Shown: piece after piece, positions 306 to 51,859 of the stretch | How the letters are laid out: the number at the start of each line of letters is the position of its first letter | How positions within the stretch are numbered: position 1 is the stretch's first letter | Origin: Candidatus Saccharimonadota bacterium | GTDB taxonomy: Bacteria > Patescibacteriota > Saccharimonadia > CAILAD01 > BJGX01 | Direction: 5' to 3' | DNA length: 64,000 nucleotides | Assembly: GCA_046350735.1 (NCBI GenBank) | Contig: JAXLZU010000001.1 | Location: 493,767 to 557,766 of the forward strand | Program-made: the position numbers and the translations under genes | The notes under the pieces: generated by a model | Databases searched by the model: none | Told to the model about the DNA's origin: nothing | Seen by the model: the letters and a program-made list of their open reading frames with translations, nothing else

Positions 306-605
306 TTATCTACCTCTCAATCGGTCGCTAATCTGAAGCTGCAGTTTACGTCGCTCGGCTTCGAGCCGCTCAATCTCTTCGTTGTAGGTGTCAATATTCG
401 AGCAGATCTGGTCAATCTCGGCTTCGGCAGCCTCTTCGGCGGCTGACCCTGGGTCACTTTTATCACGCAGCTTTTGAGCGGCGTAGAGATTGTTTTGCTC
501 GGTAACAACTCTGCCTTGCAAATCCATGAGATTATCTTCGACGAGAAGAATCTCTAGCTCTGGGTCGGTCGTAGTGGGTGTAGTGCCTGAGGGCTGCTGA
601 CTCAT
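306..605 (-). CDS. Small coiled-coil protein, hypothetical
   Basis: 99 aa ORF; heptad-like EIERLEAERRKLQLQI segment; Thr/Pro-rich N-terminus; no recognisable catalytic motif. Confidence 0.45.
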   Translation of the reverse strand: MSQQPSGTTPTTTDPELEILLVEDNLMDLQGRVVTEQNNLYAAQKLRDKSDPGSAAEEAAEAEIDQICSNIDTYNEEIERLEAERRKLQLQISDRLRGR

Positions 606-27428: not shown

Positions 27429-27513
27429 GCCGCTGTGGTGGAACTGGTAGACACGCACGACTCAAAATCGTGTGTCGAAAGACATGTCGGTTCGAGTCCG
27501 ACCAGCGGCACCA
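27429..27513 (+). tRNA. tRNA-Leu (anticodon CAA), type II with long variable arm, CCA encoded
   Basis: Acceptor stem GCCGCTG/CAGCGGC; anticodon loop CTCAAAA; variable-arm hairpin GTC-GAAA-GAC; T-loop GGTTCGAGTCC; 3-prime ACCA. Confidence 0.85.
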
Positions 27514-36978: not shown

Positions 36979-37077
36979 CCTCCTTTGACATTGACTTATA
37001 GTATACCAAGTATAATGCTTATGTTCAAGCCGTTAGAGTTTTTTCTATCGGACTTCAGGTTCTGTAGCTATAATTGT

Positions 37078-37992
37078 TTACAATTTTAGATAGCGCATTA
37101 ATGCCAACCAGCTACTGACTACCCCAATAAATACACCTACTACCAACATACTAAGTGCTATTAGACCAAAATGCGCACCAAAGTACTCAAGTGTAGGCCC
37201 GGCACCAAGCTTGTCAATAAGAAATGGCCCTATTCCTCGGCTGAATGGCACTAACAGGACAAGAGCAATTATTGTACCAAATACGCCATACAGGGTTCCT
37301 TCTACCAAGAAAGGTCCGCGTATAAACCACTTGGTTGCACCAACGAGCTTCATAATTTCTACTTCTTCGCGACGTGTAAATATAGCCATTCTAATTGTAT
37401 TAAAAATAATCAGTAGAGCAATTACTAAGAATACTACACTTAGTGCTAAGCCAATCTTGCTTACTGCATTACTTATTTTAATAACATTCTCTACTACCCC
37501 CTGTCGGTTTTCATCACGATTATCAAAACTAGTATCGGTAATTATTTTTGATTCCTCTAAGCCTTTAATATCGCTATTCGTCTGACCAATAAGATCTATA
37601 TTAGTTAGTTTTACTTCAAAACTCGCCGGCAAAGGGTTGCCAATACTTTGAGCAGATTGAGCAAGCTTCTCACCCTCAGAGCTACTGTTAGAAAGTTTAT
37701 TTAAAGCATCGGCTTTTGAAACATAATCTACAGACTTTACGTTAGATAAGGTATTTATCTTACTCTGCAGGGCTTGTATCTGGTCAGCCGTTGCATCGTC
37801 AGAAATAAAAATACTAAGGTCTATCTTCTGACGCACCTGGGCAACTTGCTTTCGCACAAAAATTGTCGAAAAAGCAAAAAACGTCATTATAAGTAGTGTA
37901 ACTACCATAATTGCAGTGGCGGCAGTACTTAGCCAGGCATTGCGAAAGATATTGCGAAATCCAGTCCGCCAAATGCGCCAAAATGTAATCAT
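37078..37992 (-). CDS. ftsX: Cell division permease FtsX
   Basis: 4 TM helices with a large extracytoplasmic loop between TM1 and TM2; overlaps ftsE stop. Confidence 0.8.
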   Translation of the reverse strand: MITFWRIWRTGFRNIFRNAWLSTAATAIMVVTLLIMTFFAFSTIFVRKQVAQVRQKIDLSIFISDDATADQIQALQSKINTLSNVKSVDYVSKADALNKLSNSSSEGEKLAQSAQSIGNPLPASFEVKLTNIDLIGQTNSDIKGLEESKIITDTSFDNRDENRQGVVENVIKISNAVSKIGLALSVVFLVIALLIIFNTIRMAIFTRREEVEIMKLVGATKWFIRGPFLVEGTLYGVFGTIIALVLLVPFSRGIGPFLIDKLGAGPTLEYFGAHFGLIALSMLVVGVFIGVVSSWLALMRYLKL

Positions 37993-38669
37993 AGCGAGTA
38001 CTTTCCTATCTTCTCATCTTTTACTACACGTCCACGATTTATAGTAATTACCCGTTTCTTAAGAGCATCGACAATTTCTTTATTATGAGTGGTAAGAACT
38101 ACGGTAGTACCAAAGCGGTTAATCTTTAGCAGTAACTCAATAATATCCCATGAATTTTTAGGGTCTAAATTGCCAGTTGGCTCATCTGCTATGAGTATTT
38201 TTGGGTTACGCACCAGGGCGCGGGCAATTGCGGTGCGTTGCTTTTCGCCACCAGAAAGCTCACTCGGGTAATTGTGCATTTTCTCAGACAGGCCAACGAG
38301 TTGTAGTATCTTAGGGACAGCGCGTTTTATTTCGCTCGTCTTTACTCCTGAGACTTCTAATGCAAAAGCCACATTTTCGTATACTGTAAGGTTAGGTAAT
38401 AATTTAAAATCTTGAAACACCACCCCAATGCGTCGACGTAAATGAGGAATGTTAGCTTTGTCAATCGTATCGTAATCTATAGAACCAACAATAATCTTAC
38501 CCGAAGTAGGTACTTCTTCTTTAATTAAAAGCCGTATAAGGGTTGATTTGCCGGCACCTGAGGAACCGACAATTGTTACAAATTCTTTGGGGTTGATGTG
38601 AAGCGAGATTCCAGAGAGTGCTACCGTTTTGTTCGGATACATCACTGTCACTCGATCGAGCAATATCAT
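37989..38669 (-). CDS. ftsE: Cell division ATP-binding protein FtsE
   Basis: Walker A GSSGAGKST; ABC signature LSGGEKQR; Walker B ILIADEPT. Confidence 0.85.
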   Translation of the reverse strand: MILLDRVTVMYPNKTVALSGISLHINPKEFVTIVGSSGAGKSTLIRLLIKEEVPTSGKIIVGSIDYDTIDKANIPHLRRRIGVVFQDFKLLPNLTVYENVAFALEVSGVKTSEIKRAVPKILQLVGLSEKMHNYPSELSGGEKQRTAIARALVRNPKILIADEPTGNLDPKNSWDIIELLLKINRFGTTVVLTTHNKEIVDALKKRVITINRGRVVKDEKIGKYSL

Positions 38670-38743
38670 ATTGTCTTATTGTAACAGAAAAACCCTTGTC
38701 CTTTCAAAGCACAATTTAATCTTTTTGTTGTTACAATAGAGAA

Positions 38744-39829
38744 ATGAAACAATTTATTAGTAAGCTTAGCAATATGTTAGAGGCAGTAACTCTAGCAATG
38801 CATCAGCTAGGCCTCGATAATGATAGAAAAACATTATCTCAGCTCGAAACACAAATGCTTGAGAGTGATTTTTGGAGCAACCCTGATTCTGCCGAAGTAA
38901 TAACTCGCCAAGCTGCCGAATTGCGTCGCTATATCGATACCTGGCAGACATTAGCTGAAGACCTTTCTCTTACACTAGAGCTTATCGAGATAGAAGCTGA
39001 TGATTCTGCAGAAGCACAATTTGCGTCTACGGTGGCTGATTTGGAAAAGCGCTATGATGAGTTAATGATAGCCACCAAGCTAAACGGTGAGTTTGATAAA
39101 AACCCAGCATTAGTACAAATTTCCGCTGGTGTTGGTGGGACTGATGCTCAAGACTGGGCCGAAATGCTTATGACGATGTATATAAAATATGCCAATTCTC
39201 ATAATCTTGCTGTGGAGGTATTAGAAACCAGCTATGGCGAAGAGGCCGGCATCAAGTCTGCTACATTACGTATTTCAGGGCCTTTTGCCTATGGCAAATT
39301 ACTAGCAGAGAAAGGCGTGCACCGTCTAGTGCGGCTCAGCCCTTTTAATAGTGATAACTTGCGACAAACAAGTTTTGCTCTAGTAGATGTTGTGCCCGAA
39401 CTAACCGACACACACATTCATCTTGATGAGAAAGATTTAAAAATTGACACATATCGTAGTAGTGGGCATGGCGGACAAAGTGTTAATACTACCGATTCTG
39501 CTGTGCGTATAACTCACCTCCCCACTGGCCTAACAGTAGCTATTCAAAATGAACGTTCGCAGCTAAAAAATAAGCAACGTGCCCTGAGTATTTTGCAATC
39601 TAAATTAGCAGAATTAGCACGTTCACAAAAACTCGATGATATTTCTAAACTTCGAGGAACGGTAAAGTCGGCAGATTGGGGTGCCCAAATTAGAAGTTAC
39701 GTGCTACATCCCTATAATAAAGTAAAAGACCATCGTACTAGTTATGAAACAAGTGATACCGCTGGTGTATTAGGTGGTGAGATTGAGCCGTTTATAGAGG
39801 CATATTTAGATCAGAAAATTAAAAAATAA
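38744..39829 (+). CDS. prfB: Peptide chain release factor 2 (contiguous ORF, no programmed frameshift)
   Basis: SPF tripeptide (RLSPFNSD) and GGQ (SGHGGQSVNTT); full N-terminal domain in-frame. Confidence 0.85.
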   Translation: MKQFISKLSNMLEAVTLAMHQLGLDNDRKTLSQLETQMLESDFWSNPDSAEVITRQAAELRRYIDTWQTLAEDLSLTLELIEIEADDSAEAQFASTVADLEKRYDELMIATKLNGEFDKNPALVQISAGVGGTDAQDWAEMLMTMYIKYANSHNLAVEVLETSYGEEAGIKSATLRISGPFAYGKLLAEKGVHRLVRLSPFNSDNLRQTSFALVDVVPELTDTHIHLDEKDLKIDTYRSSGHGGQSVNTTDSAVRITHLPTGLTVAIQNERSQLKNKQRALSILQSKLAELARSQKLDDISKLRGTVKSADWGAQIRSYVLHPYNKVKDHRTSYETSDTAGVLGGEIEPFIEAYLDQKIKK

Positions 39830-39879
39830 GTAAACAAAAAGACCCAAGAAACATAGTTCTGGGTCTTTTTTGCAAAGTA

Positions 39880-41139
39880 TTATCGAGATTTGTTAACTTT
39901 GGTGGTAACTAAACCTTTTTTACTTTTACGATACGCACGGGTAAATCCGGCAAGTCCGGTCATACCAAGAGCAGCAGCCAAGCCAGACTCCATACCAGTT
40001 GCTGGCAAACTAGGTGAGCCAGGAGTTGGTGTAGGAGTTGGGGTTGGAGGAATTGGAGTTGGTGTAGGCGTTGGGGTTACTACATTGGCAGTATCACAAA
40101 CTGGGAATGGTTCTTCGTTAGAACGAACACATGCACTATTTGTAAATGTACCAGTTGCATCAGGCTTTACAGTTACCTGCATCAGCACGTAGCCATTTAC
40201 CTTTGCGGTGTAGTCGCCAACACTTTGGCCACCAGCAGTAAAGAGCGTATTGTCTGGCAATGCCATACCATTTGGGTTCTCGGTATTGTAGAGCTTAATC
40301 GTACCTGGGATAAGCTGCACTTGAGCAGGTAATTTATCGGTTAGGGCAAGATTGTGCTGTACAACGTTTGCTGAGTTGTTAAAGTCGATTTTGTAGTATA
40401 GTCTATCACCTGGTTTAGCTTCTACAGATTTTGCAAAAGCCTGACTAGGATGAGCAACTGTCTTAGTAATTGCAAGCGGAACAGCTTCTACTTTTACTTT
40501 AACAATTACATACTCGGCATACTCAAAACATCCTGGAATGTTACCATCAGCTTGGTTTTCACCAATTAATGCACCGGTAGTAACAATACTATCAGAGAGC
40601 TTTAAGTTAGCATTTTGGCGGGTAACGGCATGAGCCGAACCAGCAACATAGCTAAGATGGAATGGTGTACCATTAGCACTTTTAAACTCGGTGGTGTCAA
40701 ACACACTGCCTGGTTGTGCATTCGATGCACTAATCTGACTAACTGCATTCATAGCAGTACCAACTGTACTGGGTAGTTGGATTTTAACTGTCGTATTACG
40801 GGCTACACCCGGACCATCAAAGTTGGCACCGTTTAGGTTGGGGCCAGCGTTGTTGTGTACATATGTACGCAAGTAAATTTCTTGTCCAGGTTGTACATTT
40901 TGTACGTCTGTATAGGTAGGATTAGCACTTTGGGCGCTATCGAAGAATTCTGTTTCGTTACCATACCCTGGGGTATTGTAAAACGAGTTAAAGGTTACAT
41001 GATCAAAGCCTGGGGTATTTGGACCGTCCCATTTACGGGTTTCTCGGTTAGGATACCAACCAGCAATGGTCATAAGCGGCGCTGCAATGGCAACAAGGGT
41101 TGCAAGTGAGGCCAAACCTATCTTGGTTGCGAGTTTCAT
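39880..41139 (-). CDS. LPXTG-anchored cell-surface protein (sortase substrate)
   Basis: N-terminal signal peptide; beta-rich body; PT-repeat linker (PTPTPTPIPPTPTPTPTP); LPATG followed by a hydrophobic segment and basic tail RAYRKSKKG. Confidence 0.7.
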   Translation of the reverse strand: MKLATKIGLASLATLVAIAAPLMTIAGWYPNRETRKWDGPNTPGFDHVTFNSFYNTPGYGNETEFFDSAQSANPTYTDVQNVQPGQEIYLRTYVHNNAGPNLNGANFDGPGVARNTTVKIQLPSTVGTAMNAVSQISASNAQPGSVFDTTEFKSANGTPFHLSYVAGSAHAVTRQNANLKLSDSIVTTGALIGENQADGNIPGCFEYAEYVIVKVKVEAVPLAITKTVAHPSQAFAKSVEAKPGDRLYYKIDFNNSANVVQHNLALTDKLPAQVQLIPGTIKLYNTENPNGMALPDNTLFTAGGQSVGDYTAKVNGYVLMQVTVKPDATGTFTNSACVRSNEEPFPVCDTANVVTPTPTPTPIPPTPTPTPTPGSPSLPATGMESGLAAALGMTGLAGFTRAYRKSKKGLVTTKVNKSR

Positions 41140-41300
41140 AAAAAACTCCTTTCATTGGTTAAAAAATTGGCACTGTTTTGACAAACTCCAATTAATATTT
41201 CAAAGATCGTGCGTTCGCTATAAATAATATCATACATAAGCGCTTATGTCAATACTTTTTATGGTAGTTTATTATCGAGAGTATATCTGTTAAATTTTTC

Positions 41301-41338
41301 ACAAAAAGAAAAGCCCCCTACCGAATTTCGGTAGGGGG
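41301..41338 (-). terminator. Rho-independent terminator downstream of the 41357-42298 gene
   Basis: Perfect 10-bp stem ccccctaccg / cggtaggggg with loop aattt (41314-41338); on the minus strand followed by cttttctttttgt. Confidence 0.6.
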
Positions 41339-41356
41339 TATAAGGTTTTGTCACAC

Positions 41357-42298
41357 TCAGGCGGGTGCCGTCGGTGGTGAAGTAATGGGCACTGACACTG
41401 TCGGCTGCGGTTGAGGCAGTGGTGCCGGCGGCGGAAGAACCGTCGATGGCGGCGTAACAGTGACAGTCGGCTGCGTAGAATCCGGCGGGCGTGGCGTCGG
41501 CGGACCCACCCCAGGCTGACAGGGACGGGCCGGATCGGCACACTGCGCCGGTGTAGGCGGCACATACGGCTTACAGCCCTGCGGGACCGTACATGTCACG
41601 ATAGAAGTAGTGGTTGTAGACGGTAGTGGTGGCGGTGTCGTCGTCGGAACACAATCACTCTTACAGCCGGGCGTTGGAGTCGGTCCACCACTGGGTGGTG
41701 GGCCACCAGGTACCTCTGGAGGAGGCGGAAACTGTCCCACGGGCTGATAGCCGCAGTCGAGCTTGTAGTTCCACTCGCTCCCATCCGGGCACGAGAAGCG
41801 CAACACCTGGTAACTCGGTCGGTCAGGATCGGCTGGGTAGCTCGACGGAATCGGCTGAGTGCCACGCATATACATCGTCTGATACGGACCAGACATGTCC
41901 ACCACCGAAGCAGAACACTTCGCCTCTGCGGCTTCCATCATGCCGACGGCACCTGCCCAAGAGGCACGGTCGTTGACATAGTTGTTGGTCGCATCGAGCA
42001 TCGACTCGGTAGAGGCATATGCCCTCGACTGATATGCGGCGTGCTGCGCTACCAGAGCGGGGTCGCTACAACGACGGGTGTGCAACTCGGCCTTGGCAGC
42101 ATCCACCTCGGTGGGGGCAGCAGGACCGTTGTTGTCAACATCTACCTTATAGCGATAGTAATCCACCGTAGAAGCGCACTCACCAGCTGGCGGTCCACCG
42201 GGTGGCGGCTGCGCGTCCACTCGTGCCACAATGGGCACGATGAGGAGCAGTGCCACTACTGCCGCCAAACTAAAACCAAGCAAAAATCGCCTTCGCAT
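41357..42298 (-). CDS. Secreted Cys- and Pro-rich hypothetical protein (GC-rich gene)
   Basis: Real start ATG at 42298 gives MRRRFLLGFSLAAVVALLLIVPIVARVDAQ signal peptide. Mature protein has paired Cys and a PT/P-rich C-terminus. The ORF-track N-terminal 133 codons are an upstream read-through. Confidence 0.5.
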   Translation of the reverse strand: MRRRFLLGFSLAAVVALLLIVPIVARVDAQPPPGGPPAGECASTVDYYRYKVDVDNNGPAAPTEVDAAKAELHTRRCSDPALVAQHAAYQSRAYASTESMLDATNNYVNDRASWAGAVGMMEAAEAKCSASVVDMSGPYQTMYMRGTQPIPSSYPADPDRPSYQVLRFSCPDGSEWNYKLDCGYQPVGQFPPPPEVPGGPPPSGGPTPTPGCKSDCVPTTTPPPLPSTTTTSIVTCTVPQGCKPYVPPTPAQCADPARPCQPGVGPPTPRPPDSTQPTVTVTPPSTVLPPPAPLPQPQPTVSVPITSPPTAPA

Positions 42299-42388
42299 CT
42301 GATCTGTATTCAAGGTACATCCTTCCTTTTCGGGAACTTGGGAACAGGACACTTTCTCACATACCATATATGAGAAAGTCGCTATTAG

Positions 42389-42433
42389 CAAGAAAAAAAT
42401 CTCTGGTGGGGGTCTTTTGCAAGACCCCCACCA
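42389..42433 (-). terminator. Rho-independent terminator downstream of the 42454-43182 gene
   Basis: Perfect 13-bp stem tggtgggggtctt / aagacccccacca with loop ttgc (42404-42433); a T7 tract follows on the minus strand. Confidence 0.65.
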
Positions 42434-42453
42434 GGACAAAAAAGTGAGAAAAA

Positions 42454-43182
42454 TTACTGGGCAGCCGCTGCCGGTGCATTGCCAGCTTGGCCAGCGTTGG
42501 CTGGAGCTGGTGCCGGTGCCGGTGCCGGCGGAGCTGCAGGCAACTCGAGCGTCGGCGCAGGTGCCGGTGCCGGATTGGCAGCAGCATTGGCCGGCGGAGC
42601 CGCATCGGCGCGATTCTGGCCGCGGTTGACGACAAAACTCAGCACGAAGGCAAGAGCAAACATCAACACCACACCACAGGCAGTAGAAACAATCCACATT
42701 CGTGCCGGGTCGGCCGGGATATCCACAATCAACTTGTTCTGAGCATCAGCGAAGTGCTTGCCCAGACCGTACTGCTCGAACACCCAGAAGTACCAGAACG
42801 GAATCGAAACGAGACCAATCACAAACGAGACCAGCATCACCATCGCCCAGTCAACACGGTCGCCCATGCGCTCGAAGATGGCAATAAACCAGTTATCATG
42901 GGTGGCGATCTGCTGATCGTGACGATCAACATGGGTCGCAGTGGTCTCATGCGCCTGGCGGAGCATGTCCTGCTGCTGGCCCTGACGATCAACCAGACCA
43001 GTCAAATCACCCAAATGGGTCTCAACCACATCAACACGACCCTCAAGTGCGCCAATCTGTGCACCCTGAGCCTGAAAACGACGACCAACTGCCTGATTGT
43101 GCGCGTGCTGTGCCCGATCACGGGCCTCGACACGCTCAGCAATACGGCGCAAATTGGCTTGAATTCGCTCTGCCTCTGTCAT
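42454..43182 (-). CDS. Hypothetical membrane protein: N-terminal coiled-coil, two TM helices, Ala/Pro-rich C-terminal tail (GC-rich gene)
   Basis: ATG at 43182 with GGAGA SD; heptad N-terminus; TM helices MVMLVSFVIGLVSIPFWYFWVF and IVSTACGVVLMFALAFVLSFVV; tail PAPAPAPAPA. Confidence 0.5.
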   Translation of the reverse strand: MTEAERIQANLRRIAERVEARDRAQHAHNQAVGRRFQAQGAQIGALEGRVDVVETHLGDLTGLVDRQGQQQDMLRQAHETTATHVDRHDQQIATHDNWFIAIFERMGDRVDWAMVMLVSFVIGLVSIPFWYFWVFEQYGLGKHFADAQNKLIVDIPADPARMWIVSTACGVVLMFALAFVLSFVVNRGQNRADAAPPANAAANPAPAPAPTLELPAAPPAPAPAPAPANAGQAGNAPAAAAQ

Positions 43183-43275
43183 TCTATTTGTTCTCCTCTA
43201 TCGGGGACTAGAAGGTACCGCGTACGTGTCACAACCTAAGTTATGCCACGTAGTAAGACTTCTATAAGTAAAGCT

Positions 43276-43305
43276 GGCAGAGGTGGGTGTTACCCCACCC
43301 CTGCC
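43276..43305 (-). terminator. Probable terminator downstream of the 43319-44209 gene
   Basis: 12-bp stem ggcagaggtggg / cccacccctgcc (one mismatch) with loop tgttac; weak T-run on the minus strand. Confidence 0.45.
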
Positions 43306-43318
43306 GAAAAAAGAGATA

Positions 43319-44209
43319 CTAGCTATCGAGTAGCTCGACCAAGCTGCGACAACCCTTCACAAACCAATCATCATCAAGATCACTCAGAGGGTCAGCAGGG
43401 TCGACAGTGATGTACTCGAGGCCAGTCACCGGCGAGGAGTCATCAGTCTGCAGACTGTCATCGGTCGGGTCGGCCTTTGCGGTCGGCTTTGCATCGCCTT
43501 CACCCAACCCGTTGCCAGGCTCTTCGTAATCGAACGGCTTCTTGTCGTCTGGCTTAGAAACGCTTTGCAGCGCCTCAGCAACCTTCTTACGTGAAACCAT
43601 AGTCTTGGCATTACTGCCCTTAGCTGCATCAGCAAGAGCCAGTACATCAACTACGGTACACTTCAGAAAGGCTGCCAACTCACCAGCAGCAACCAAATCG
43701 GCATCGACATCCGGCTTCGGTTCGACGTACTCGCGCGGAGTGATATCGTTCCAGGCCAACTTACCCTGCAAGAAGCTTCTCACCTGCGCATTCAAATTAG
43801 CATAATCAACTCGCTTGCCATCTCGCTTGAGCTCGCAACGGCGATACACCAAGCCACTCAAGACACGAACGACAGCAATAATGGGTAGATCCTGCTGATT
43901 GCTCAGCGTAATAACCAGCATTTGTGTTTCAGCATCTGACGCCGCAATGGCATCGAGAGCTGGTGAGATCTGACGGTCAAACTTGCGCAAGTCAGTAGGG
44001 TCAGCACTAGCAATCGCAGTCAGCACCAAGCTAATTGAGTCAGATACCGCACTGGCTTCAGAATCATCATCAGCAGCAGCTTCATCGCCCTGACTATCTG
44101 CATCATCTGTGTGTTCGTCAGAAGCATCCGGCCTTGACTCATTCAGAACTTCATCAAAAGCCTTGCTGAGATCATCATCATTCAAACCAAGATCATCATC
44201 AGCCATCGT
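43319..44209 (-). CDS. Hypothetical highly acidic protein (GC-rich gene)
   Basis: Probable start ATG (MADDDLGL) at 44209 preceded by aagaagagagagg SD; the track start is an upstream TTG. Asp/Glu-rich termini, central alpha-helical core. Confidence 0.45.
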   Translation of the reverse strand, partial: TMADDDLGLNDDDLSKAFDEVLNESRPDASDEHTDDADSQGDEAAADDDSEASAVSDSISLVLTAIASADPTDLRKFDRQISPALDAIAASDAETQMLVITLSNQQDLPIIAVVRVLSGLVYRRCELKRDGKRVDYANLNAQVRSFLQGKLAWNDITPREYVEPKPDVDADLVAAGELAAFLKCTVVDVLALADAAKGSNAKTMVSRKKVAEALQSVSKPDDKKPFDYEEPGNGLGEGDAKPTAKADPTDDSLQTDDSSPVTGLEYITVDPADPLSDLDDDWFVKGCRSLVELLDS

Positions 44210-44267
44210 TGCCTCTCTCTTCTTTCGGTTCAAGGAACCTGGTTACCGGAATTGATAACCAAGTAAT

Positions 44268-44317
44268 TAAATCGAAAAAAAACTTGGTGTTGGGGCACCC
44301 TCGCACCCCAACACCAA
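44268..44317 (-). terminator. Rho-independent terminator downstream of the 44329-45618 gene
   Basis: Perfect 12-bp stem ttggtgttgggg / ccccaacaccaa (44284-44317); a T8 tract follows on the minus strand. Confidence 0.6.
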
Positions 44318-44328
44318 ACACAATTACG

Positions 44329-45618
44329 TTACAAAAGAGCTTTGGCCTTCTTAATAATCTCAGCCTTACGGGCACGTGCCTCTTCGGGACTAAGACCATC
44401 AATCTCGCTACGCATAAAGGCCTTAACAGAGCGAAGTAGACGCTCGCGCGCTTCGCTACCACTCTCGTCGGCAACTAGCGCCGGGGCGGACGGGGTCTGC
44501 ACGGGCCGCCGAGCAAGCAAGTTCTTCTCTTTGGCAGCATCTCGCTCAGCCCACTCGCGTTGCTTTTCAGCAAGAAGTGCACGAAGTTGATTGGCATCAG
44601 CACCCTTAATCAGTTCGCTCCTTAGCCAACCGAGAAGAGTGCTATCTACTGAAAGATCAAGTAGCCGAGCAATGTCTTCCATGAGCGCTTCATTGTCCGT
44701 GCGTGTCATGAGGATGTAATTGCGAGGAGTATCACTGTCCTCACTACGCGGAACCGATTCGCGAATAAGTTGACGAAGAGCTTCAGTATCACCAGGGTTA
44801 GTGCCGGCGGCCAACTCTTGATCGGCAACCCGCCTGTCAAACTGACCCTGGTAACGCGAACCCTCACTGCCCTTCCAGGGATTGTTATCCTCACCTAGAA
44901 TGGAATCATAACTCAGCAGCCAAACACCATTACTGCGGGCTTGGCGCAAGCGAACCGTCTCGGCCCGGGGCACCAGGACATGTACATCGCCAATCTCAAC
45001 TTCTTCTACTTTACTAGCAAACTCACCAGCAAGATGAGAAAGATAGGCAGCAAGCTGTGTCAGATAATCTTCTTTGGGCTCATCGCCAGACTTAGTAGTT
45101 TCTTCACTATCAGTCTGCACTGGGTTTGCACCGGCCTTAATTGCAGCAATTTCCTCATCTGTGTACGTCAGCCAGTACACCTGGCTATACACACACATTA
45201 GTGCCTGATCAATAGTTTCGCTTGCAGCTAGACATTCCATAATCTTATCGGCGGCCTGACCATTGTTAGGTCGGACTACCTTATAATTATCATCAAGCTT
45301 CATATAGCGATGGTGAACCTTGGCGGTTTGTACCATCTCAAGAACAAGAGCCCGAACTTCATTACTGTCAACACCATTTTCGAGTAGACCCTTACACGCA
45401 GTAAGAGTTTCATCGAGCATAGATTTTGCAACTTCAAAGTGGGCAGTCAGGCTGGCTTCATAAAGAGATTTCTTGTCATCTTTATCAATGTCAGGATCTT
45501 CGCTCAACGGTTCTTCTCCTCGTTCGGCAGCGAGTGCTTTCGCAATTCGCTTCTGGTTCTGCCTGACAATTTCGGACACTTCTTCACCTCTCGCTTGTCC
45601 AAGTGGAGCCCTAAGCAC
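44329..45618 (-). CDS. Hypothetical protein, 429 aa (moderately GC-rich gene)
   Basis: Long ORF with GTG start in the track; a later in-frame start is possible; charged, alpha-helical; no family recognised. Confidence 0.45.
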   Translation of the reverse strand: MLRAPLGQARGEEVSEIVRQNQKRIAKALAAERGEEPLSEDPDIDKDDKKSLYEASLTAHFEVAKSMLDETLTACKGLLENGVDSNEVRALVLEMVQTAKVHHRYMKLDDNYKVVRPNNGQAADKIMECLAASETIDQALMCVYSQVYWLTYTDEEIAAIKAGANPVQTDSEETTKSGDEPKEDYLTQLAAYLSHLAGEFASKVEEVEIGDVHVLVPRAETVRLRQARSNGVWLLSYDSILGEDNNPWKGSEGSRYQGQFDRRVADQELAAGTNPGDTEALRQLIRESVPRSEDSDTPRNYILMTRTDNEALMEDIARLLDLSVDSTLLGWLRSELIKGADANQLRALLAEKQREWAERDAAKEKNLLARRPVQTPSAPALVADESGSEARERLLRSVKAFMRSEIDGLSPEEARARKAEIIKKAKALL

Positions 45619-45801
45619 ATTACTACGCTCAGAGCTCCACTCAGAAATTACAAGAAGTAAAAAAAACTATGCATCTATCACTAGATCTTTTGTACTAAAG
45701 TAATTGTAATGTAAACATTTCTACAAAGCTTTTAACAAAACCTCATCAGGTATGATGGTACTACAAAAACTTAAAAAAGTCAATAGTTTTTAACAGGAAT
45801 A

Positions 45802-46146
45802 TTAATCTGTTGGAGTACTGATGTTTTGTATTGCGTCAGCTTCAGCCAACACAGCCTTTCGATTATTCTCGAGCTCGTTAATAGTATCGAGCTCTATCTG
45901 GGCATTCCACTGCTCATAGTTATCTACTTTAGACCTAATAAACTCTTCTACTTGGTCGTCTTGCCCGGAGTCAATAAGCGAGTTGAGCTTATCAATATCT
46001 TCGTCAGAAAGCATTTCGGTAATCTTTTGCATAACACGAGTTGCAACAGTATCGGCTAGTTGTTGTAGCTGTACTTCTTGCTCGTCGGGAGGTAAGTTTT
46101 CGATACCAAGTTTTTGTATAATTTCTTCTTTAGTAATCATATTCAT
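45802..46146 (-). CDS. Hypothetical small acidic helical protein
   Basis: 114 aa; AAAGG SD overlapping the stop of the upstream 548-aa gene, suggesting an operon. Confidence 0.4.
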   Translation of the reverse strand: MNMITKEEIIQKLGIENLPPDEQEVQLQQLADTVATRVMQKITEMLSDEDIDKLNSLIDSGQDDQVEEFIRSKVDNYEQWNAQIELDTINELENNRKAVLAEADAIQNISTPTD

Positions 46147-46152
46147 CCTTTG

Positions 46153-47799
46153 TTAAGATCCAAACCCTTCTGGGGCAGGAGGTAATTTAGAAAGTGCTTC
46201 GGCTATCTTGGCATCTGTCCAGCCTTGCGCCTTCATAGATTCTGTCCAAGACATAAATTTCTGGAATGTATTTGGATGATGAACCATTTCGGCAAACTCT
46301 CGAGAGTTCAACCAGTCTGGTGGTTTGGGTGCAGTTGGCGGCGCTTCTGGTGTGGCATGCAAAGCATTACCAATTATCGGTGCGGCGGCCAAACCTGCTC
46401 CTGCTACAGCTGCGCCTCTACTCCATCGACGTTTGCGGCGAGTTTGTCGTTGAGCAGCAGTAGTGTAGTCTTCAATACTATCAATATCCGCCTTATTAAA
46501 TTGCCTATCAGCCAACCATTCGCCGCCTGCCTTGGTAGCAGTGTAACCACCAAAGCCTCTCAGCGCAGCACGCCCTGCAACTGCGGCAGATACTAGCGGA
46601 ACGTTACCCGTAGCTGCCCCTACAAAACCAAGCCCTGTTAGTGCTACACCGGCTGCAATTCGAGTTTTCTTATGATTACGTAGCCATTCACCCACTCTTG
46701 CAAGCCTAGGGTGTCGTCGCTCTCTCTCGGCAATCATCTCAAAATCAACTCTAGCACGTACTTCCATAAGCTTTTCGTTAACCATAGCGTTGAGACCAGC
46801 CCGAATTTGTGCTTCTAGCTGTTCGTTTTGAGAGTTCTGATTTTCTAATCGACGAATCAGATCTCCAACCATTCTTACTTGATCATCAAAATCGGCCGGA
46901 CGAGCGTCGTCTGGTAGGGCCTCTAGATCTCTTAAATTCTGATGAGCATCGTCTAGGTCGGCGCGAATTGCTTGGGTTTGCTCGTAAACTGCTCTATTTT
47001 GCTCTGTAATAAGTCTTGCAAGAGCAGCCGACCACTCACCAAATGCCTCATTAAGCTCTTGGGCTGAATGCTCCATTTCATTAGTAGCCGTCTTGCCAGA
47101 AAACATTCGTTCACTTTCTACTCTTCGGCGAGCAAAGTCTGTAACAATACCTTCTAATCGAGCAGCTTGTTCTCGCAATGCTTCTTGTGCACCCAATATA
47201 GCCTGGGCTTCTAATTCGCCTCTATTAGGTTCTCTTGGTGCTGGTGGCTCAACATCACCGACCTGGTTACCATTATAGAATTCTTCTTCGTGTGCTGGAG
47301 CGGTATCTTGTGTCATACCTGCTTGGCGCATTCTTGCACCAAATTGTTCCCAGGTTCTTTCGGTCTGAGATGGTGCACCTGGGCGATTATAAAATTCATC
47401 TTCGTCAGCAGGGCCGTTATCGTTATTCATGCCCGCCTCACGCATTTTTTTGCCTAATTCAGCATATGGATCGAGCCGGGTATCGGCTCTACCTGCTTGC
47501 TCTTCTCGAAATTTTGCCATACCCTCCGCATATCTGCTTGCACCAGAGCTATAATGTGGTCTCACTTGGTCGTTATTTCTATCAACCTCACCTGGTGTAG
47601 GTGCTTTTGGTTTTTTCGTAATCGAATCTAATCTATCGCGTACCTCGACAAGAGATTTTGTTAGAACTCCATTTTTTCTTTCTAAACTAGCAATCTTTTG
47701 TTGGTCTTTAGCCCTGTCAGCCTCTAGCTTAGCTAATTTTTTCTTTAGATCGGCTGGTGTTTCAAATTCTGTAGTGCCGCCTGGATCTTTTTCTGACAT
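46153..47799 (-). CDS. Hypothetical protein: N-terminal coiled-coil, Gly/Ala-zipper membrane segments near the C-terminus
   Basis: ATG at 47799 with AGAGGG SD; KLAKLEADRAKDQQKIASLERK coiled-coil; IAAGVALTGLGFVGAATG and GAAVAGAGLAAAPIIG hydrophobic Gly-zipper segments. Confidence 0.5.
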   Translation of the reverse strand: MSEKDPGGTTEFETPADLKKKLAKLEADRAKDQQKIASLERKNGVLTKSLVEVRDRLDSITKKPKAPTPGEVDRNNDQVRPHYSSGASRYAEGMAKFREEQAGRADTRLDPYAELGKKMREAGMNNDNGPADEDEFYNRPGAPSQTERTWEQFGARMRQAGMTQDTAPAHEEEFYNGNQVGDVEPPAPREPNRGELEAQAILGAQEALREQAARLEGIVTDFARRRVESERMFSGKTATNEMEHSAQELNEAFGEWSAALARLITEQNRAVYEQTQAIRADLDDAHQNLRDLEALPDDARPADFDDQVRMVGDLIRRLENQNSQNEQLEAQIRAGLNAMVNEKLMEVRARVDFEMIAERERRHPRLARVGEWLRNHKKTRIAAGVALTGLGFVGAATGNVPLVSAAVAGRAALRGFGGYTATKAGGEWLADRQFNKADIDSIEDYTTAAQRQTRRKRRWSRGAAVAGAGLAAAPIIGNALHATPEAPPTAPKPPDWLNSREFAEMVHHPNTFQKFMSWTESMKAQGWTDAKIAEALSKLPPAPEGFGS

Positions 47800-47961
47800 A
47801 CTGTTACCCTCTTACTAATTAAATATACTTATGTTTAATTGTACCAAGTTATTGCAAGACCGGTCAATAAAGCTTAAAGATTTTCCTGTATAACTTAAAC
47901 CCTCTACGCCTCTCCACTAACAGTAATAGTTTTTAAATATAGGGCACGCATCTATGCATTT

Positions 47962-48034
47962 TGTACAAAAAAAGAAGCCCCGCCAAAACGAGTTAACCAC
48001 ATTTTGGTGGAAGCTTCTTGTCTTTGCGGGGCTA
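47962..48034 (-). terminator. Structured terminator (nested hairpins) downstream of the 48048-48482 gene
   Basis: Outer GC stem agccccgc / gcggggct enclosing inner hairpin ccaaaa...ttttgg; T-rich tract (ttcttttttt) on the minus strand. Confidence 0.45.
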
Positions 48035-48047
48035 AAATGATTTGTTA

Positions 48048-48482
48048 TTAGAGGTACAGTGGTTTGCTATTGAGAAAAACGCCCGTTACGCTACCGACAA
48101 ACTCCATATTCTTTAGCTGTGCATTATACTTACTGGCAGGAATAGAACGTGCGCCCAATACTGCCAAACAAATGCTCTCGCACCTCTCACTCATTGGGCA
48201 ATCTACCTCATAACATGACTCAGCAAAACGGGCAGCGCCCATTCGTTCCTCTTCGATACAATCCGGACAATCGTAGTAACCAAGAATGAAAGCATCGAGG
48301 ATACCCGCATTAGCACGGGCTATGCATTCAGCTTCTAGTTCTGTACCGGGTACTACTTCGTACATATGTTCGCCAGAAATACACTGTGCAAGATAGGTTT
48401 CTGGACTCACGCTCTCTTCTCCTTGACTTTGAGTCGGCATCAAAACTAAAAATATAATAGCATAAATACTACTAAATTGCAA
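48048..48482 (-). CDS. Small secreted Cys-rich protein, hypothetical
   Basis: Signal peptide MQFSSIYAIIFLVLMPTQSQG; 9 Cys in about 120 mature residues (CxDC, CxxxC patterns). Confidence 0.45.
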   Translation of the reverse strand: MQFSSIYAIIFLVLMPTQSQGEESVSPETYLAQCISGEHMYEVVPGTELEAECIARANAGILDAFILGYYDCPDCIEEERMGAARFAESCYEVDCPMSERCESICLAVLGARSIPASKYNAQLKNMEFVGSVTGVFLNSKPLYL

Positions 48483-48505
48483 TATTATAGATTGTTACTA
48501 AGTGA

Positions 48506-49198
48506 CTACTGTATTCCCATAAGCTGTGTGTCAAAAACAAGTGGTGTGTTGGGAGCAATAGTTGGCGGATATCCGCGAGCACCATAAGCCAATGCTGCCG
48601 GAATAGTTAATCTTCGTACTGCACCAACCTTCATGTCTTGCAGGCCAATATCCCACCCTTGAATTACTTGCCCGGCACCAAGCTTAAAAGCAAAGGGTTG
48701 TTTTTGACCCTTTAGGCTAGTGTCGAATACTTTGCCATCTGGTAAATAGCCAATATAGTGTACGGCGATGGTATCTCCCACTTTTGTTATACGCGTACCT
48801 GCCCCAAGGTTATACTCGTCTATCTTTAGACCATTAGGGAGTGTTTGACTTCGTATTGGTTGTTGATTTTGTGTGGTATCTTGAGTGTTCGCAGATGACC
48901 CCGATGTGGTTGGTGTAGTAGCAGAACCGGCAGCAGAACTATTACTCGAATTTGTAGACTGACCAGGTATAGGCAACCCTTGTAAACTCAACCCACTATC
49001 ACCACTTTCTGATGTACCCAGACCATTGCCGTTGTCTTTTTTGTTCTCGTCATTATAGATAGTAGTTTGAGGCTGGTCGTGAGTAACACGAATAATTAAC
49101 CAGCCAACAATAATAATTAAAGCAACCACGATAAGCGCGCCTACAATGAGGATTATTTTTGTACGCTTAGACCTCTGGTGTGTATAAAAACTTTGCAT
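48506..49198 (-). CDS. Membrane-anchored FKBP-type peptidyl-prolyl cis-trans isomerase
   Basis: N-terminal TM; Ser/Thr linker; C-terminal FKBP domain (GDTIAVHYIGYLPDGKVFDTS...GWDIGLQDMKVG). Confidence 0.8.
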   Translation of the reverse strand: MQSFYTHQRSKRTKIILIVGALIVVALIIIVGWLIIRVTHDQPQTTIYNDENKKDNGNGLGTSESGDSGLSLQGLPIPGQSTNSSNSSAAGSATTPTTSGSSANTQDTTQNQQPIRSQTLPNGLKIDEYNLGAGTRITKVGDTIAVHYIGYLPDGKVFDTSLKGQKQPFAFKLGAGQVIQGWDIGLQDMKVGAVRRLTIPAALAYGARGYPPTIAPNTPLVFDTQLMGIQ

Positions 49199-49212
49199 AC
49201 CCCCTCTAGTCT

Positions 49213-51801
49213 CTAACGGCGCTTTTTCTTTTTCTTTTTAGACTTACGCATTGGCTTTAAATTGGGTCGAGCATTAGCAACACTACGACGATCTGACCGA
49301 GTTTTGGTTTTTACCTCTTCAGCCTCGCTTGCACCCTCGCTTTTAGCATACTTGGCACCCTCGGTAATTTCGGTTTGCACCATTTCTTGAGGTATCTGGT
49401 CTTGTATTTGTACCTTGAATATCGTTGCCGCTATTTCGGCGTCTATCCCAGCCTGTAATTGCCTAAAAATACGAAATGCCTCTGCCTTATATTCCACTAA
49501 GGGATCTTTTTGGGCATAGCCTCTTAGCCCAATACCTTCACGCAAATGATCCATAGTTTCGAGATGTTGCAACCAAGCTGAATCTATTACCTTTAAACAG
49601 ACCAGGCGTTCGATAAGTCGGGTTGTTTCTTCACCAAACATTTTTTCTCGAGCACCATACTCTTTGTCTGCAATCTTGTACAGGTTTTCCGCTAAATCTT
49701 CTGGTAGCTTTTTGGTGACAGTTTTTGCCCAATTTTTTGGCAACTCTACTATAGTACTCGCATTTTTTTGCACAGTTTCTAGATTGAGCTCACCAGTTTC
49801 TGCATCGGTACTAGAATTAGCTATGGCTAAAAACTGAGCTTTTACCATGCCGAGTACTGTAGAACGTAGGTTTTTATTTACCAACACCTCACGTCTTAGC
49901 TTATATATCACCTCTCGGTGCGAGTTCATAACATCATCGTATTCTACTAAGTGCTTGCGAATATCAAAGTTGTGGCCCTCGACACGTTTTTGTGCGGTTT
50001 CGAGTGCTCGGGTAATTACTTTGTTCTCAATAGGGGTGTCTTCGGGAACATTAAGCGTATTCATAAGACTACCAATACGTTCACCACCAAATACCCGCAT
50101 TAAATCGTCTTCTAAGCTAACATAAAATTGGGTGCTACCAGGGTCACCTTGACGACCCGCCCTACCACGCAATTGGTTATCAATTCGTCTCGACTCGTGT
50201 CGTTCGGTACCAATAACATGTAGCCCACCTAGCTTCTTGACACCCTCGCCAAGCACAATATCGGTACCACGACCGGCAATATTGGTAGCCAATGTAACCG
50301 CACCTTTTTGTCCTGCGCTGGCAATAATCTCTGCTTCTGCCTCATTGTTTTTAGCATTCAAAACTGTATGAGGCACGCCTGCCTTGCGCAACATTTGGCC
50401 CATCAATTCATTCTTTTCGATACTTACAGTACCTATTAAAACCGGTTGGCCGGCCTTGTTGCGTTCTGCAACCTCTTCTGCTACCGCCTGGTATTTTGCA
50501 ATCTCGGTCTTATATATTCTATCGCGCTCATCTTTACGAATCATCGGCTGATGGGTTGGTACCTTAGTAACCTCCAACTTGTAGATTTTGGCAAATTCCT
50601 CGGCTTCGGTTAAGGCAGTACCTGTCATACCAGCAAGTTTTTTGTACAAACGAAACAGATTCTGAAAAGTAATGGTAGCCAAAGTCTGGCTCTCTGCCTG
50701 AATTTGCACATCTTCTTTGGCTTCTATTGCTTGATGTAAACCCTCGCTATAACGACGACCTGGCAATAGACGGCCAGTAAACTCATCGACAATAATAATC
50801 TCACCGTCTGGACTAACCACGTAATCTTTGTCGCGCGTAAAAATTGCTTCTGCTTTTAGTGCCGCCTCTACGTGATGCACATCTTCTATACGGCCTGCCT
50901 CGTAAATATTCTTTACTCCAATAGCTTTTTCTATCTTTTTAATTCCATCCTCAGTAAGACTTACAGCTTTTTGTTTTTCATCTACTGTGTAGTCTTTTTC
51001 GGGTTGTAAGGTTTTAGCAATACGTGCAAAGTTATAATACCGTTCGGCAGGCTTGGCATTGGGTTGAGAGATAATAAGCGGTGTGCGAGCTTCATCGATA
51101 AGGATAGAGTCTACTTCGTCGACAATAGCAAAGTTCAGAGGTCGTTGCACCATCTGTTCGGCCTCTTGCACCATATTATCGCGTAAATAATCAAAGCCAA
51201 ACTCGTTATTAGTGCCGTAGGTAATATCGGCATCATACGCTTCTTTACGTGTAACTGGTTTGAGATGTCGTAAGCGCTCGTCGTGATGAGACTCATTACT
51301 AAATTCGGGGTCGTATATAAATGCCGAGTCGTGCATAATAACTGCAGTTGAAAGCCCTAGAAAATAATATATTTGTGCCATCCAGCCGGCATCTCGACGC
51401 GCCAAATAATCGTTAACAGTTACCAAATGAACACCTTTGCCAGTTAGGGCATTAAGATACACAGGCAAGGTAGCTACGAGAGTTTTGCCTTCGCCTGTTC
51501 GCATCTCAGCTATCTTACCTTCGTGCAATACAATTCCACCAATTAACTGCACATCAAAATGACGCATATTAAGTTTTCGCTTTGATGCCTCTCGTACCAC
51601 CGCGAAGGCTTCTTCTAAAATGTCGTCTAGTTTTGTTTTACCGGCTAGTCGTTTTTTAAACTCACCAGTTTTGGCTGCTAGCTGTTTGTCGGTTAACTTC
51701 TGTAGTTTTGCTTCTAGAGCATTAATCTTCTCTACACGAAGTCGCGCTTTTTTTATTTCACGCTCATTAGGGTCACCAAAAATTTTACTTAGTAACGACA
51801 T
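49213..51801 (-). CDS. secA: Preprotein translocase ATPase SecA
   Basis: DEAD-motor motifs ([31 protein letters not shown]); preprotein cross-linking, helical scaffold and wing domains; Lys-rich C-terminus. Confidence 0.93.
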
Positions 51802-51859
51802 TTATACCTTATTTTAACCTGATTATTATAGCAGATATAGTTGCTCTATTCGAGCCAAA

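Follow-up and report, generated by a model that had tools for sequence, protein, structure and literature searches.

Unusual GC content and codon usage are routinely read as marks of horizontal transfer, a reading that in Saccharibacteria leads to claims of gene capture from actinobacterial hosts. Several described systems offer points of comparison for such compositional outliers. In the PE_PGRS genes of mycobacteria the excess GC stems from repetitive stretches coding for Gly and Ala, and the genome as a whole is GC-rich to begin with. GC-biased gene conversion (gBGC) has been connected with raised GC content at third codon positions (GC3) in native bacterial genes (PMC4450053), the bldA/TTA system of Streptomyces concerns a gene set enriched in a genome-rare codon (PMC2000904), and the CLIPPER domain, formerly DUF11, is the isopeptide-bonded stalk domain of fibrillar adhesins (PMC12617251). 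Here we analyse a block of four consecutive minus-strand genes, g1 to g4, which lies next to a CLIPPER surface-protein gene in a 64,000-nucleotide stretch of a Candidatus Saccharimonadota genome (contig JAXLZU010000001.1). This whole stretch is called the window, and positions are given within it unless another contig is named.

A preliminary description of the window, made from the sequence alone, had singled out the block as far GC-richer than its surroundings and had offered four explanations: an ameliorated acquisition from a high-GC donor, phage or mobile-element cargo, a native set of unusual surface proteins, or an assembly chimera. We are confident that the block is native and that its composition is maintained in place rather than left over from a foreign source. 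A comparison with the described systems is given at the end.

Synonymous composition of the block

The window has a GC content of about 41%, and its 1-kb bins range from 0.36 to 0.47 except across 41–45 kb, where they reach 0.51–0.57. This region holds the following four genes:

41357–42313, minus strand: g1, secreted protein, 318 amino acids (aa) from TTG 42313 or 313 aa from ATG 42298
42454–43182, minus strand: g2, membrane protein, 242 aa
43319–44206, minus strand: g3, very acidic protein, 295 aa from ATG 44206, probably cytoplasmic
44329–45579, minus strand: g4, acidic, mostly helical protein, 416 aa from GTG 45579 behind the ribosome-binding site GAGAGGTG, probably cytoplasmic

The GC content of g1 to g4 is 0.60, 0.59, 0.51 and 0.50, compared with about 0.41 elsewhere, and their GC3 is 0.59, 0.58, 0.50 and 0.43, compared with 0.22–0.41 in the background genes. 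Binned GC, per-gene GC and GC3 therefore agree that the block stands out from the rest of the window, as had been noticed at the outset. As a control for amino-acid content, GC3 was predicted for each gene by applying the codon usage of the background to its amino-acid composition. The predictions for g1 to g4 were 0.33–0.34, leaving excesses of +0.27, +0.24, +0.17 and +0.09, respectively. Among the 46 other genes, observed-minus-predicted GC3 had a standard deviation of 0.033, so that these excesses correspond to z values of approximately 8, 7, 5 and 2.7. Amino-acid content consequently explains only part of the signal, which upholds the earlier suspicion that the proteins' composition was not the whole cause. 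The earlier claim that g1 has a mostly-CCG proline bias also held: CCG encodes 29 of its 60 prolines, whereas the Pro-Thr repeat of the adjacent LPXTG gene uses CCA and CCT only. A 548-aa neighbour (46153–47799) has a first-position GC content of 0.63, as in the block, yet a normal GC3 of 0.31; a like amino-acid make-up alone does not bring the synonymous bias.

The synonymous shift is almost wholly from A-ending to G-ending codons. In comparison with the background, the block makes far less use of AAA (codon fraction 0.16 vs 0.63), CAA (0.19 vs 0.65) and GTA (0.13 vs 0.46) and far more of CCG (0.51 vs 0.12), while ATA (0), TTA (0) and AGA (0.01) are nearly absent from it. The choice between C and T is almost unmoved (GAT 0.71 vs 0.67). 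Expressed as G3/(G3+A3), the preference is 0.72, 0.79, 0.72 and 0.58 in g1 to g4 and 0.16–0.46 in all 53 other open reading frames (ORFs); C3/(C3+T3) is 0.46, 0.42, 0.36 and 0.33, against a background of 0.23–0.41, or up to 0.56 if ORF 306–605 is counted. Coding-strand A is also depleted at the first codon positions of the block genes. The bias spans globular and coiled-coil parts and not just the Pro/Ala tails, and it is weaker over the first 40–60 codons, with codons 2–41 relaxed in seven of nine lineages. Its edges are sharp, since the CLIPPER gene 217 nt away has a GC3 of 0.32 and the DUF5663 gene on the other side one of 0.37. With the terminator stems removed, spacers inside the block have a GC content of 0.37–0.41, against a window intergenic mean of 0.33 ± 0.05.

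A single ribosomal-protein gene, rpmA (L27, 32502–32777), is present in the window; its G3/(G3+A3) of 0.16 is lower than that of any other gene there, and its C3/(C3+T3) is 0.23. Because the L27 gene lies at this extreme, G-ending codons appear to be the rare, non-optimal set in this genome. We considered whether the block might consist of translationally optimised, highly expressed genes, but the codon preference of L27 contradicts this, a single ribosomal-protein gene being a thin test.

Two other features of the window concern composition. ORF 306–605 (minus strand), which encodes a 99-aa coiled coil with no family match, is a second outlier (GC 0.51, GC3 0.54) in which G3 and C3 preference are both raised (0.52 and 0.56). 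Cumulative GC skew reaches its maximum near 33 kb and declines steadily from there to the window end, which may reflect a replication-related strand switch.

Conservation of the block and of its composition

The window was compared with contigs and lineages numbered with the prefix L. L001–L007 are partial sequences of seven strains of the same species, and L008, L009 and L010 are the closest lineages, making up the window clade. The order secA–FKBP–(murD)–5xx-aa gene–DUF5663–g4–g3–g2–g1–LPXTG–prfB–ftsEX recurs in L008, L009 and L010. In L094 the block and its prfB-ftsEX side are kept, the upstream genes being murD, a small ORF and one of 1579 aa, and in L099, a short contig, the four-gene series only is seen. 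Within the L094 and L099 blocks the g1 and/or g2 member is homologous, and the other two match g3 and g4 by position and length only (21–40% aligned identity). The block is thus syntenic in at least six diverged lineages. A core pair, consisting of a g2-like gene and g1, stands beside a CLIPPER gene in four deep lineages (L095, L097, L101 and L103), and g3 and g4 are confined to the window clade, L094 and L099.

The families differ greatly in size. The g1 family has 276 cluster representatives at E ≤ 1e-3, and all of its organism-named members, a sample since most matches are unnamed, are hypothetical proteins of Candidatus Saccharibacteria. For g2, the best conserved of the four (71–81% identity within the clade), there are 8 matches, and a profile scan of metagenomes returned only two contigs, both already among the loci compared. 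For g4 there are 4 matches, all in the window clade, including three non-identical relatives among 5.8 billion clusters (62, 55 and 42% identity).

The unusual composition recurs along with the genes. In the sister genomes the block has a GC3 of 0.43–0.70 and its flanks 0.24–0.37, and the core pair is GC-rich in 10 of the 11 lineages examined. The window clade and L094 share the A3-to-G3 pattern, with G3/(G3+A3) of 0.58–0.83 and C3/(C3+T3) of 0.33–0.49, and also the gradient in which g4 is weaker than g3 and g3 weaker than g2 and g1; L099 is nearer to symmetric. In the four deep lineages the g2-like and g1 genes have a GC content of 0.63–0.67 and a GC3 of 0.72–0.79 in genomes of 0.43–0.51 GC, and G3 and C3 are both raised. 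The adjoining CLIPPER genes are normal and the edges sharp: a 200-nt GC profile of L103 steps from 0.43 to 0.70 and from 0.71 to 0.47. A crude amino-acid proxy, comparing Gly, Ala, Arg and Pro (GARP) with Phe, Tyr, Met, Ile, Asn and Lys (FYMINK), suggests that most of the g1 family resembles the GC-rich type.

Three further observations concern this locus in other lineages. L012, a UBA4664-type genome, was found by a search with prfB in which the matches listed were mostly from distant phyla. Its slot between the DUF5663 and LPXTG genes (L012 1887–3590) holds genes for a 218-aa coiled-coil/transmembrane (TM) protein and a 298-aa secreted Pro-rich protein, similar in architecture to g2 and g1 but without detectable sequence similarity to either, so that they represent either extreme divergence or non-orthologous replacement. 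The prfB gene (38744–39829) points the opposite way to its neighbours in the window clade and in L094, and in L012 it is co-oriented with the adhesin gene and ftsEX. Lastly, in L101 (7527–8605, minus strand) two called ORFs of 149 and 140 aa with a GC3 of 0.76–0.82 lie just upstream of the pair and may be further GC-rich genes or antisense artefacts.

Persistence of the bias beyond synonymous saturation

Among the four closest lineages SecA is 93% identical, yet four-fold degenerate sites are only 36–40% identical. Within the clade, four-fold identity exceeds the random level by 0.136 for the flanks and by 0.165 for the block. The Lys, Gln and Glu codons of g2 are 83% G-ending although their excess identity between lineages, 0.074, is that of essentially randomised sites. 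Between the window and L094 the excess identity of the flanks is down to 0.045, and both keep a G3/(G3+A3) of 0.6–0.83. The four deep lineages are saturated, with excess identities of −0.01 to 0.03 in PK, PGK and TIM at protein identities of 48–68%, and there g1 still has a GC3 of 0.72–0.79 against a genome level of 0.4–0.5. With synonymous sites saturated between lineages, a donor signature could not have survived. A decay model, in which such a signature falls roughly as the square root of the excess identity per lineage, leads to the same point, as the present G3 preference of g1, g2 and g3 would require an ancestral G3/(G3+A3) above 1.

Pairwise identity of g1 tracks that of the flanks (0.68/0.50, 0.58/0.38, 0.58/0.35, 0.52/0.27, 0.50/0.26 and 0.48/0.30 for the pairs of values). 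Third-position changes found in the block among strains of the species are balanced once polarised, with 13 AT>GC and 11 GC>AT in a small sample with crude polarisation, whereas amelioration would be expected to favour GC>AT by approximately 2.5:1. Taken together, synteny, saturation, co-divergence and balanced changes indicate that the block was inherited vertically and that its composition is maintained in place.

Assembly integrity and search for mobile elements

The identical g2 protein was found on nine contigs from independent, unrelated samples. L001, assembled by JGI, covers 40807–51840 at 97.9% identity, L002 (Logan) covers 37000–43545 at 100%, and L003 and L004 (Logan) span the left edge; L001–L004 come from unrelated samples and are 97.5–100% identical to the window. 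The block edges, bordered by the LPXTG adhesin gene and the DUF5663 gene, carry no flanking direct repeats, no integrase or recombinase gene occurs among the block neighbours, and no tRNA gene lies at the edges, the sole one in the window being at 27.4 kb. Scans of IMG/VR with g1, g2 and g4 as queries were negative, and blastn against phage and plasmid records gave no match to the block. Against PHROGs, only g2 had weak matches, to families of unknown function (E 9e-4), and g1, g3 and g4 had none. PADLOC defence models did not match g1–g4, Pfam and NCBIfam detected no domains in them, and Rfam gave no credible RNA family in the block or its leaders. The four proteins accordingly remain outside recognisable families, as first described. 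Our literature search found no description of the block or of GC-rich native genes in Saccharibacteria.

Within-species variation is mosaic. The density of single-nucleotide polymorphisms (SNPs) is 3.7% in g1, 0.1% in g2, 4.0% in g3 and 0% in g4, and in the flanks 3.3% in ftsE and 0.2% in the LPXTG gene. SNPs in g3 are distributed over the three codon positions as 10/11/15, compared with 3/1/41 in secA; g3 is fast-evolving and under relaxed or diversifying selection. In L001 (12379–13279 of that contig, JGI 3300006092) two adhesin segments, 39909–40324 and 40696–40806 of the window, do not align although their surroundings are about 98–100% identical. The gene call for the adhesin in that strain is split into fragments of 111 and 123 aa, and the adhesin is either hypervariable or disrupted.

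Foreign origin weighed against maintenance in place

An artefact of assembly or binning has a negligible probability: apart from the abrupt change of composition nothing speaks for it, L001–L004 cross the junctions so that independent JGI and Logan assemblies span both edges, and the same arrangement is kept in other species. The idea of an old acquisition from a high-GC donor that is still ameliorating, for which an actinobacterial host had been proposed, has more to recommend it. The proteins are rich in GARP residues and GC is raised at all codon positions, the G3 and C3 preferences of the g1 and g2-like genes in the four deep lineages are like those of a 60–65% GC genome, and by a rough calculation from the four closest lineages alone a very GC-rich donor is just possible for the pooled block. 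However, syntenic orthologues are present in every related genome found, the very observation that the preliminary description had said would speak against a transfer, and g1 co-diverges with host genes. The bias outlasts synonymous saturation, which excludes a relic for g1, g2 and g3 within the clade, between the window and L094, and across the four deep lineages. Recent substitutions are balanced, and no homologue from outside Saccharibacteria is named among the 276 family representatives. In addition, a chance sample of high-GC genes from Actinomycetota showed a G3/(G3+A3) of 0.64–0.87 and a C3/(C3+T3) of 0.56–0.77 that rise together, unlike the window block, where G3 is raised without C3 and the C/T choice is unshifted throughout the window clade. 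We therefore regard an actinobacterial or other high-GC relic as very improbable.

Another reading is a cassette that is repeatedly re-imported from a GC-rich mobile reservoir, be it phage, plasmid or another lineage, and replaces the resident copy at the same site. In its favour, natural competence is known in Saccharibacteria (PMC10633639), g1 and g2 have a synonymous identity (0.24–0.28) slightly above that of the flanks (0.14), and in L012 the same slot is occupied by two unrelated genes of similar architecture. Such a reservoir left no match in IMG/VR (g1, g2 and g4 queries), phage records, plasmids or PHROGs, the edges are without repeats, integrase or tRNA, g1 divergence parallels that of the host, and no lineage was found in which the block genes match a GC-rich genome. 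Re-import is thus improbable, and the suggestion that the block is phage or mobile-element cargo fails on the same searches, which yielded no usable match, and on the lack of repeats or a recombinase. The favoured member of the original set of explanations is that of native, unusual surface proteins, with two amendments: an envelope location is indicated for g1 and g2 only, and low complexity does not explain the GC3 excess.

What may maintain the composition

Our preferred explanation, which we put at somewhat better than even, is a native, vertically inherited, Saccharibacteria-specific module whose composition is maintained by a gene-specific force. Its ancient core would be the pair of a g2-like coiled-coil membrane protein and a secreted g1-domain protein with a Pro/Thr stalk, set immediately upstream of a sortase-type CLIPPER/PKD adhesin gene, with the acidic g3 and g4 having joined it in the clade of the window. 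A force acting in place would hold these coding sequences 10–25 GC points above the genome and, in the window clade, would take the form of avoidance of A-ending codons, favouring the rare G-ending codons of the genome. The likeliest such force may be selection on transcript or codons, through mRNA stability or structure or through non-optimal decoding by rare tRNAs, an identification that we hold tentatively and at rather less than even. It fits the gene-bounded edges, the relaxation at the 5' end and the anti-optimal codon set. A regional process at the DNA level is less likely, and it fits the window clade poorly because the spacers have a GC content of 0.37–0.41 and the genes 200 nt off have a normal composition. 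The window contains a single tRNA gene (27429–27513, plus strand), for tRNA-Leu(CAA), a dedicated decoder of the G-ending codon TTG, which bears on the rare-codon idea.

Several observations weigh against this explanation. The family member in L102, the most distant one examined, lacks the GC enrichment (GC3 0.33). The spacer separating the two genes is GC-rich too in L095, L097 and L103 (0.53–0.63), which a regional force would also explain, and since the shape of the bias differs by clade, being A3-to-G3 only in one case and symmetric in the other, one mechanism may not account for both. Predicted mRNA folding is much stronger in the block, but the margin by which it surpasses synonymous shuffles (z −2.2 to −4.2) is equalled in control genes. 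An Akashi-type test was non-discriminating, with weak odds ratios of 1.32 in the block and 1.26 in the flanks, and GC-ending codons are enriched at conserved residues equally in both. Finally, if a small-genome epibiont such as this has a small effective population size, strong synonymous selection would not be expected in it. Dual coding, in which avoidance of A3 would preserve an antisense ORF, was considered and rejected, because the avoidance extends to all A-ending codons instead of being confined to TTA, CTA and TCA, and because the antisense translations resemble Arg/Cys-rich junk.

Two further processes could hold synonymous sites away from the genomic equilibrium without selection on codons. 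Diversifying surface genes recombine often, and at a recombination hotspot GC-biased repair would raise GC3. A link between GC3 and recombination is documented in bacteria (PMC4450053), the within-species SNP density of g1 to g4 is mosaic, and in the four deep lineages the excess is symmetric and the inter-gene spacer GC-rich, so that gene conversion is possible for those lineages. The SNP mosaic is, however, found equally in the flanking ftsE and LPXTG genes, the edges match gene boundaries with normal neighbours 200 nt away, and in the window clade only A3 shifts to G3 (C3/(C3+T3) 0.33–0.46 vs 0.23–0.41), a strand asymmetry unlike conversion. To our knowledge, the effects of gene conversion on GC3 in bacteria are also far smaller than the 20–40 points seen here. 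We consider gene conversion doubtful as the general cause. Strand asymmetry is instead what a transcription-linked mutational bias would give, in which high transcription exposes the non-template strand and A>G changes enrich the coding strand in G. In the window clade codon positions 1 and 3 are poor in A on the coding strand and T is retained, the AT skew of the region runs opposite to that of other minus-strand genes, the excess is limited to transcribed sequence, and separate transcription units with strong terminators fit high expression. Transcription-associated damage in bacteria is, though, dominated by C>T on the non-template strand, and the drop in C3 and rise in T3 that this predicts are not seen; neither does such a bias fit the symmetric excess of the deep lineages. 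We judge it unlikely.

If selection on transcript or codons does maintain the composition, the enrichment in G-ending codons might itself be functional, a conserved control device at the codon or transcript level that sets the genes of the surface module apart within a reduced, AT-rich epibiont genome; we offer this as a speculation. Translation would then be gated by rare G-decoding tRNAs, or the mRNAs would be exceptionally stable, and production of a host-contact apparatus would be tied to the physiological state. With such a device, synonymous composition would serve particular genes as a regulatory signal throughout the phylum, kept where synonymous sites are otherwise randomised.

Encoded proteins and their surface-protein neighbours

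g1 combines a signal peptide or signal anchor with a conserved domain of about 150 residues and a tail that is Pro/Thr-rich and disordered, and the core is modelled as four helices and a six-stranded sheet (predicted local distance difference test, pLDDT, 70–93). g2 begins with a coiled coil and also has two TM helices and a tail rich in Ala and Pro. g3 and g4 are both strongly acidic, g3 with a net charge of approximately −34, and the g4 model is helical with a small beta domain. No sequence or fold relative of g1–g4 was found in the PDB, and none of the four has a pilin, sortase, adhesin or isopeptide domain; CLIPPER and LPATG are found only in the neighbouring gene.

In every g1-family locus read, the gene directly downstream of g1 encodes a CLIPPER/DUF11/PKD or LPXTG-type surface protein, and outside L102 g1 is preceded by a gene of g2 architecture (coiled coil, two TM helices and low-complexity tail). 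Topology and gene neighbourhood together point to an envelope or surface role, probably linked to the sortase-anchored adhesin and possibly to host contact. Long g1-family members of 550–625 aa were considered as g2+g1 fusions, but they carry other N-terminal extensions together with a TM anchor or signal peptide instead.

In two of the deep lineages the deposited annotation lies antisense to GC-rich g2-like genes, as a 288-aa ORF in L095 (9097–9963, minus strand) and a 337-aa ORF in L103 (8895–9908, minus strand). These calls are probably wrong, as the protein read from the plus strand has the coiled coil, the two TM helices and the low-complexity tail of the g2 architecture.

Gene starts, transcription signals and flanking genes

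The preliminary coordinates correctly gave four minus-strand genes, and three of their starts were corrected: g1 to 42313, g3 to 44206 and g4 to 45579. The upstream TTG of g1 lies behind GGAAGGA, and the N-terminus that it yields, MNxxDDQMRRR, is kept in homologues, making TTG 42313 the probable start. For g4, every orthologue begins with MSE at the position of GTG 45579. Each of the four genes has its own strong hairpin and T-run at the 3' end (stems of 11–17 bp), so the four appear to be separate transcription units. These hairpins are kept in a sister genome through compensatory changes, as for the g2 terminator in L009. The signals and flanking genes are as follows:

41314–41338, minus strand: intrinsic terminator after g1, 11-bp hairpin followed by a T-run
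42403–42434, minus strand: intrinsic terminator after g2, 14 bp
43276–43305, minus strand: intrinsic terminator after g3, 12 bp
44282–44319, minus strand: intrinsic terminator after g4, 17 bp
45755–45783, minus strand: promoter-like site 5' of g4, TTGACT-17-TACCAT, a consensus match only
39880–41139, minus strand: LPATG sortase-anchored surface protein with a CLIPPER/DUF11 domain, normal composition (GC3 0.32)
45802–46146, minus strand: DUF5663 protein gene, conserved upstream neighbour in the window clade (GC3 0.37)
46153–47799, minus strand: 548-aa coiled-coil/TM protein gene, conserved upstream neighbour in the window clade (GC3 0.31)

Implications and comparison with known systems

The block is a counter-example to the routine reading of odd composition as transfer: a strong compositional outlier that is vertically inherited and whose bias is held where synonymous sites are fully randomised. 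It calls for caution in composition-based calls of horizontal transfer in Patescibacteria and also in gene calling, given the spurious antisense ORFs over these genes in two genomes. It further brings to light a Saccharibacteria-wide, uncharacterised gene pair tied to sortase-anchored adhesin genes, a reasonable candidate for part of the epibiont's host-contact surface. The question that it poses is what force keeps synonymous sites 20–40 points off the genomic equilibrium in a few genes of a tiny genome, and since Saccharibacteria are now genetically tractable, this can be tested there.

Genomic islands of atypical composition share with the block a contiguous run of several genes, GC content, GC3 and codon usage off the norm, sharp edges and genes of unknown function. 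They differ from it in that the block has a conserved position, co-diverges with the genome, lacks mobility genes, repeats and a tRNA, and has no donor that we could find; its bias also persists past synonymous saturation and its recent substitutions are balanced. Neither does it have the patchiness of an island, as it is syntenic in L008, L009, L010, L094 and L099, and other genes occupy the slot only in the distant L012. The PE_PGRS genes are, like the block, a lineage-specific, envelope-associated family with low-complexity Ala/Gly/Pro-rich regions and a GC content above the genome mean. In the block, however, globular and coiled-coil parts are biased as well, and the genome is AT-rich.

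Genes shaped by gBGC (Lassalle et al. 2015, PMC4450053) resemble g1–g4 in being native genes with synonymous GC above the mutational equilibrium of the genome, which is plausible for surface-related genes. The excess here is much larger and gene-bounded, and it is limited, in the window clade, to the choice between A and G on the coding strand. With the bldA/TTA system of Streptomyces (PMC2000904) the likeness would be one of logic only: both are gene sets enriched in genome-rare codons whose expression could depend on particular tRNAs, but hundreds of codons from many codon families are involved here, against a single codon there. CLIPPER fibrillar-adhesin loci (PMC12617251) differ in that g1–g4 are without adhesin domains or structural relatives, the functional link being drawn from gene order only. 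They resemble the present locus in that the module stands directly upstream of an LPXTG/CLIPPER or PKD surface-protein gene and that g1 is a secreted protein with a Pro/Thr stalk.

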